Positions 37,022 through 37,049 of a DNA stretch of 64,000 nt are shown here, piece by piece. The stretch comes from Escherichia coli (lineage in GTDB: Bacteria > Pseudomonadota > Gammaproteobacteria > Enterobacterales > Enterobacteriaceae). The notes under the pieces were generated by a model. The model was not told where the DNA came from. It was given only the letters and a program-made list of their open reading frames with translations, and ran no database searches. Where the stretch lies: the NCBI RefSeq assembly GCF_002854065.1, contig NZ_CP024147.1, one strand, 5' to 3'. Position 1 is the first letter of the stretch. Every line of letters starts with the position of its first letter. Made by a program: the position numbers and the translations under genes.

Positions 37022-37049
37022 GGAACTTCGCGCTATAAAACGAATCTGA
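37022..37049 (+). promoter_or_regulatory. SigmaE (sigma-24)-type promoter of degP
   Basis: GGAACTT (37022-37028), 16-nt spacer, TCTGA (37045-37049); matches the sigmaE consensus ggAACtt-N16-TCnaA; lies ~45-70 bp upstream of the degP ATG. Confidence 0.8.

Follow-up and report, generated by a model that had tools for sequence, protein, structure and literature searches.

The DNA between dgt and degP in Escherichia coli raises the question of which form of RNA polymerase begins transcription of degP (htrA), and of what else is written into the short region that precedes this gene. Here we analyzed a stretch of 64,000 nucleotides of E. coli DNA (the window), in which the motif GGAACTT-N16-TCTGA stands upstream of degP at 37022-37049. 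Our analysis indicated that this motif is almost certainly degPp, the degP (htrA) promoter recognised by RNA polymerase with sigmaE (RpoE). The DNA itself shows how this promoter is built and conserved, and that it is identical with the one characterised by experiment in K-12. degPp and one other promoter were the founding members of the sigmaE class; where its transcription starts, that it depends on sigmaE and that Cpx co-regulates it are textbook knowledge. The degP sigmaE promoter described here is already known and is not a discovery. What is mildly new concerns the frequencies of two spacer alleles, and a single-base difference that possibly disables a nested promoter in E. coli.

Genes and promoter elements at the dgt-degP boundary

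The gene order around the site is mtn-dgt-degP-cdaR, with mtn upstream and cdaR downstream. The start codon of degP at 37095 opens the next ATG-initiated long reading frame after the promoter, 45 nt from the end of the -10 element, and the RefSeq annotation of DNA identical to the window agrees with the degP call. A reading frame of 67 amino acids on the minus strand (36858-37061) overlaps the promoter and was assumed to be a mechanical ORF. The genes and the core promoter elements are as follows.

35448-36965, dgt (dGTPase), profile score 892 bits
37022-37028, plus strand, sigmaE -35 element GGAACTT, core matched at 7 of 7 bases
37029-37044, plus strand, spacer CGCGCTATAAAACGAA of 16 nt, read from the sequence, with GC at 37030-37031
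37045-37049, plus strand, sigmaE -10 element TCTGA, matching the TCAAA core at 3 of 5 bases (Rhodius et al., 2006)
37055, plus strand, transcription start (+1), an A, placed by mapping K-12 start 180844 across by alignment offset
37095-38519, plus strand, degP (htrA), 474 amino acids, NCBIfam NF008189 DegP equivalog, 935 bits against a cut-off of 720

The site has the features expected of a sigmaE promoter, namely a GGAACTT-like -35 element, a -10 element with TC and a trailing A, and a spacer within 15-17 nt. The start known from the K-12 literature adds a purine at A 37055, and the DNA upstream of the promoter is rich in A/T (23 of the 30 bases at 36990-37019). On both strands of the 64,000-base window, GGAACTT-N16-TCTGA was found exactly once, while shuffles that preserve dinucleotides gave a mean of 0.01. 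A looser pattern, GGAACTT-N15-17-TCNNA, returned the same single site (0.35 expected), and GAACTT-N15-17-TCNAA gave zero matches in the pattern scan of the window. When one mismatch was allowed in the -35 element, the whole window held 8 matches against 7.0 expected. This relaxed scan is therefore at chance level and unusable for calling further sigmaE promoters. What sets the degP site apart is a perfect -35 element, correctly spaced from a TC..A element. Elsewhere in the window, GGAACTA-N16-TCGAA occurs on the plus strand at 52224-52251, within rseP and some 870 nt ahead of bamA. This may be the known sigmaE promoter of bamA-skp-lpxD; sites of such quality arise at the chance frequency just given.

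The original prediction had described the motif as an almost ideal match to the sigmaE consensus, a description that holds for one element and not for the other. We compared degP with the consensus of Rhodius et al. (2006), which rests on 28 RACE-mapped promoters and gives a -35 of GGAACTTTT and a -10 of (T/C)GGTCAAAA with the core TCAAA (PMC1312014). degP shares the -35 core at all 7 positions, the purine start 6 nt after the -10 element and the A/T-rich upstream DNA. In contrast, only the T, the C and the last A of TCTGA agree with the -10 core, and the -35 core is followed by CG in degP, where the consensus has TT. The two -10 positions that mismatch TCAAA include the one column that is variable among genera. 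degP and rpoH P3 were the promoters from which an older consensus, GGAACTT-N16-TCTGA, was drawn, which makes the resemblance at TCTGA partly circular.

Transcription start and response to sigmaE

In K-12, the characterised degPp also lies between dgt and degP, and every base of the motif in the window is the same as in that promoter. This bears out the earlier reading of the site as the sigmaE promoter upstream of degP, with coordinates that proved exact. The -35 element, the -10 element, the spacer length, the start position, the leader and the upstream block with the CpxR box are all identical. Over 171 bases of the promoter region, K-12 MG1655 and the window differ at two positions, the adjacent spacer bases 37030-37031, which are AG in K-12 and GC in the window. 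These two differences probably leave function unchanged.

For the position of the start, the induction by sigmaE and by Cpx and the function of the thermometer, we rely on the K-12 and Salmonella literature; the functional data refer to K-12, with its minority AG spacer allele, or to Salmonella, and not to the strain of the window. Purified E-sigmaE reportedly transcribes the degP promoter in vitro, a result attributed to Erickson and Gross in 1989. In a genome-wide 5' RACE study of K-12, Kim et al. (2012) recorded a sole degP start at 180844, with 13 reads and a 5' UTR of 40 (PMC3415461, supplement file 2), and the upstream sequence given for this start ends in ...GGAACTTCAGGCTATAAAACGAATCTGAAGAACA (PMC3415461). 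The corresponding base in the window is A 37055, which lies 6 nt past the -10 element and 40 nt ahead of the degP ATG, in agreement with the predicted start about 6-8 nt downstream of 37049.

Induction by sigmaE had been predicted as well, and it is strong in K-12. When rpoE was overexpressed, degP rose 56-fold in the array data and 64-fold in qRT-PCR (Bury-Moné et al., 2009; PMC2731931); no other gene in that study's table of the sigmaE regulon responded as strongly. degP is further among the 60 promoters of the sigmaE library of Rhodius and Mutalik, which counts it with the promoters that are active in vivo under basal conditions (PMC3326320). The conserved core of the sigmaE regulon also includes DegP (PMC1312014). 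degP is not mentioned in the supplement of the ROSE in vitro transcription paper or in the main text of Shimada 2017.

Conservation across the Enterobacteriaceae

We scanned species-representative genomes for DegP and collected 80 loci from Enterobacteriaceae, with protein identities of 83-100%. dgt was immediately upstream of degP in all 80 of them, and the promoter was recovered by a simple pattern in 77 of the 80 sequences. Among these 77, the -35 element was GGAACTT in 59, GGAACTA in 12 and TGAACTT in 6. The -10 element was TCTGA in 67, TCTTA in 7 and TCTCA in 3, with spacers of 16 nt in 74 sequences and of 17 nt in the other 3. GGAACTT is also present in three Buttiauxella sequences, whose -10 element is deviant (TCTAT-like).

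Conservation per column was then read from the 77 distinct sequences. GAACT of the -35 element is present in 100%, the T, C and T of the -10 element in 99% and its final A in 100%, while the fourth base of the -10 varies (G 66, T 8, C 3); the +1 A at 37055 is invariant (77/77). Mean conservation was 0.967 for the -35 element, 0.964 for the -10 element and 0.965 for the 12 motif columns together, whereas the intergenic region as a whole averaged 0.833 (permutation p = 0.0003). The spacer reached 0.82 overall and 0.92 over TATAAA, and its inner part, GCTATAAA, is unusually conserved for a spacer.

About half of the sampled species carry an insertion of 5-6 nt (TAGTCAC-like) between the -10 element and the conserved leader ACACAGCAA. 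It is present in Klebsiella, Kosakonia, Atlantibacter and Kluyvera, among others, and absent in the group of Escherichia, Salmonella, Citrobacter and Enterobacter. In K. pneumoniae, which has the insertion, one of the mapped starts is found 8 nt past TCTGA (PMC3415461). The start therefore tracks the -10 element and not the leader, as a promoter model predicts.

The upstream block and CpxR

A second stress input would act further upstream, and the sites that bear on it are the following.

36826-36840, plus strand, CpxR box 'degP2' GTAAATTACCGTCAG, inside dgt, centred at about -222, a listed known site
36976-36990, plus strand, CpxR box 'degP1' GTAAAGACGAACAAT, centred at about -72, a listed known site
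36996-37000, plus strand, TTTAC, an inverted GTAAA, centred at about -57

GTAAA and its inverted partner had earlier been proposed, with some reserve, as CpxR half-sites. The proposal stands for GTAAA at 36976, which opens the listed direct-repeat box; the inverted TTTAC lies outside the canonical architecture. Known CpxR sites follow a direct repeat, GTAAA-N5-6-GTAAA (PMC9600279; PMC3158067), whereas GTAAA-N15-TTTAC (36976-36980 and 36996-37000) does not fit such an arrangement. Set against the GTAAA-N5-GTAAA pattern bound by CpxR-P, degP1 reads GTAAA-GACGA-ACAAT, with a perfect first half-site (5/5) and a second that matches at 2/5. In a compilation of 41 known CpxR sites from 2022, degP1 scores low by PSSM (7.77, close to the bottom of the hits given there) and degP2 scores 12.7 (PMC9600279 Table S1). 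The degP2 box is not conserved across genera, that is, outside Escherichia.

The upstream block itself is under clear constraint. TTGTAAAG, CAATA and TTTAC are each invariant in 77 of the 77 sequences, and mean conservation over 36974-37004 is 0.937, on the level of the core promoter. The invariance of TTTAC implies that it is functional in some way, either as an extra CpxR half-site or as part of a distal A/T tract, similar to an UP element, that is contacted by the alpha C-terminal domain (alpha-CTD) of RNA polymerase. A version of the latter reading is that the tract AAATTTTTAC, at -63 to -55, makes this distal contact and that CpxR binds the direct repeat GTAAA-N5-ACAAT alone, so that GTAAA...TTTAC is not an inverted repeat for CpxR. 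We consider this a serious contender, with slightly less than even chances. It accords with the direct-repeat consensus and with the compiled site, which is precisely GTAAAGACGAACAAT. The A/T-rich information peaks of sigmaE promoters, at -48/-49 and -57/-58 (PMC1312014), point the same way, as does the finding that the length of the A/T tract at the distal subsite predicts the strength of sigmaE promoters, in a set in which degP was active (PMC3326320). However, TTTAC is invariant including its C, which is tighter than a generic A/T tract requires. Moreover, the pentamers begin at 36976, 36986 and 36996, 10 bp apart and hence on one face of the helix, like tandem sites for a response regulator; from GTAAA to TTTAC the distance is 20 bp, or two helical turns. 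We infer the exact positions at which CpxR would contact this DNA.

Cpx activation is known to increase degP expression in vivo, 26-fold with cpxA24 and 32-fold with pNlpE (PMC9600279 Table 1). Overproduction of CpxR alone gave no induction of degP, for which the authors blamed limiting sigmaE (PMC2731931). This missing induction agrees with an action of CpxR at the sigmaE promoter.

A possible second promoter within the spacer

The conservation of the inner spacer raises the question of whether the same DNA carries a further promoter. One additional element is relevant here.

37036-37041, plus strand, TAAAAC, candidate sigma70-type -10 element; the start used by relatives corresponds to G 37048

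Salmonella Typhimurium htrA (htrAp1, p2, p3) shares with E. coli the sigmaE-type start with a 40-nt UTR, the thermometer leader and the upstream block. Unlike E. coli, for which one start is reported, it has in addition a start 7 nt upstream and starts inside dgt. The mapped Salmonella transcripts come from three start sites and have UTRs of 40 nt (stress-induced), 47 nt, and 215 or 449 nt, the last two from inside dgt (PMC5602114). The start of the 47-nt UTR is equivalent to position 37048 of the window, the G of TCTGA. In K. pneumoniae, start 207608 falls on the G of TCTG as well, with 25 reads, compared with 11 for the sigmaE-type start (PMC3415461). Salmonella and K. pneumoniae both have TAAAAT at -12 to -7 from that G, where E. 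coli has TAAAAC, with C at -7. At the corresponding column, 37041, 44 sequences have T and 32 have C.

The excessive conservation of the spacer, together with starts of relatives that lie inside the -10 element, suggests that a second, overlapping promoter shares this DNA. Tentatively, the conserved spacer (GCTATAAA) may double as the -10 element of a nested, sigmaE-independent promoter with its start on the G of TCTGA; this promoter would be active in Salmonella and Klebsiella (TAAAAT) and crippled by a T-to-C change at -7 in E. coli and in some Citrobacter and Enterobacter. We regard this as possible, at well below even chances. Such a promoter would explain both the over-conserved spacer and the single start in E. 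coli. If true, degP of E. coli would be more strictly sigmaE-dependent than htrA of its relatives, and one nucleotide would explain the reported difference between Escherichia and Salmonella in the regulation of DegP.

A stronger form of this idea, that the same DNA is mainly a sigma70-type, activator-dependent promoter (-10 element TAAAAC at 37036-37041, in the conserved TATAAA of the spacer, and start at G 37048) with sigmaE in a secondary role, appears improbable. It gains from the second Salmonella start, from the higher read count of the Klebsiella start on the G, from the conservation of GCTATAAA beyond what is usual and from TAAAAT standing exactly at -12 to -7 in these two genera. In E. 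coli, however, C replaces the critical T at -7, and only the start at 180844 was recorded in the very dataset that gave two for Klebsiella. A consensus scan of 36700-37300 returned no sigma70-like promoter and no intrinsic terminator, which excludes any obvious housekeeping promoter overlapping this site and any terminator of dgt, and TAAAAC has no acceptable -35 element at a spacing of 16 to 18 nt. The 56-fold response of degP to sigmaE also speaks against this form. In E. coli, the nested element would thus be at most an additional weak promoter and not a replacement for the sigmaE promoter.

The last alternative, a chance resemblance at the motif with degP transcribed by read-through from dgt or from a promoter inside dgt, could point to the terminator-free gap between dgt and degP, to the long-UTR transcripts of Salmonella, to a conserved TATTAT at 36867-36872 and to the chance frequency of loose sigmaE-like sites, but the mapped start and the conservation effectively refute it. 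By chance, the window should hold 0.01 copies of the exact motif, both elements and their spacing are conserved across the sampled genera, the mapped start lies 6 nt past the -10 element, degP is strongly induced by sigmaE, and the upstream starts of Salmonella are additional low-level inputs.

The DNA inside dgt nevertheless has features of its own. GGGAATATTATTACCGTTGC at 36861-36881 (plus strand) is conserved across genera including its third codon positions, at which the mean majority frequency elsewhere is 0.57; this also applies to the TATTAT just named. That hexamer lies 7-8 nt upstream of the equivalent of the Salmonella htrAp1 start (215-nt UTR), and a promoter inside dgt around 36867-36872 is possible. 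Relative to the htrAp1-equivalent start, the degP2 box (36826-36840) would be centred at about -47.

The leader as an RNA thermometer

Downstream of the sigmaE start, the leader matches a known RNA family.

37055-37100, plus strand, HtrA fourU RNA thermometer (RF02700) in the degP 5' leader, Rfam score 77 bits against a gathering threshold of 52

The match is full length (model positions 1-46, E = 4e-16) and begins exactly at 37055. The predicted hairpin of the leader is weak, at -3 kcal/mol, and pairs UUUU with the GAGA Shine-Dalgarno sequence; such a weak predicted structure is as expected of a fourU thermometer. The htrA thermometer of Salmonella was characterised by SHAPE (PMC5602114), and E. 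coli differs from it at only a few leader bases, one of which is in the loop.

Taken together, these elements suggest how the sigmaE promoter of degP would work. GGAACTT (37022-37028) would be bound by region 4 of the sigma factor, and TCTGA (37045-37049) would be bound and melted by region 2, across the spacer of 16 nt. Transcription from A 37055 would produce a leader of 40 nt, with the weak fourU HtrA thermometer over the ribosome-binding site, followed by degP. Under envelope stress, caused by misfolded outer-membrane proteins or heat, sigmaE would be freed from RseA and transcription would increase. Phosphorylated CpxR, at the GTAAAG...CAATA...TTTAC block (-80 to -55), would provide a second stress input. 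About 130 bp would then stack four layers, that is, the CpxR block, the sigmaE promoter, a possible nested promoter and the RNA thermometer, and a single base may account for E. coli being without the second start of Salmonella and Klebsiella.

Spacer alleles in E. coli

To place the two spacer differences from K-12 in context, we turned to complete E. coli genomes. A query of 401 bp around the site (36850-37250) was matched at at least 99% identity in 5422 of 5426 genomes, with dgt and degP annotated, which identifies the window as E. coli chromosome, and the dgt-degP intergenic region at at least 95% identity in 5424 of 5426. The 129-bp intergenic region occurs in essentially two alleles, the type of the window in about 4034 and the K-12 type in about 1389 of the 5424 genomes. 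About 74% of the complete E. coli genomes thus have the GC spacer allele, while K-12 and B strains have AG, the minority form. Among the Enterobacteriaceae, the majority states at 37030-37031 are G (83%) and C (84%). With GC in the majority both within E. coli and in other Enterobacteriaceae, the AG of the laboratory strains is a derived minority form.

Three of the 5425 matches of the 401-bp query were in plasmid-labelled records. In NZ_AP027854.1 (E. coli 2017-19-1CC), the match to 36850-37250 starts only at about 36963 and falls into two separate places, which points to an insertion or rearrangement at the very stop of dgt, immediately ahead of the CpxR block. Strain SK1144, which is identical to the window around degP, differs from K-12, at loci 1838-6742 and 23036-24556 of its own sequence, by a four-gene fimbrial operon between mrcB and fhuA and by the lack of yaeI between yaeH and dapD. 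Further along the window, a t44 RNA (Rfam RF00127, 83.5 bits) lies on the plus strand at 45257-45343, between map and rpsB, and is the usual leader element of rpsB.
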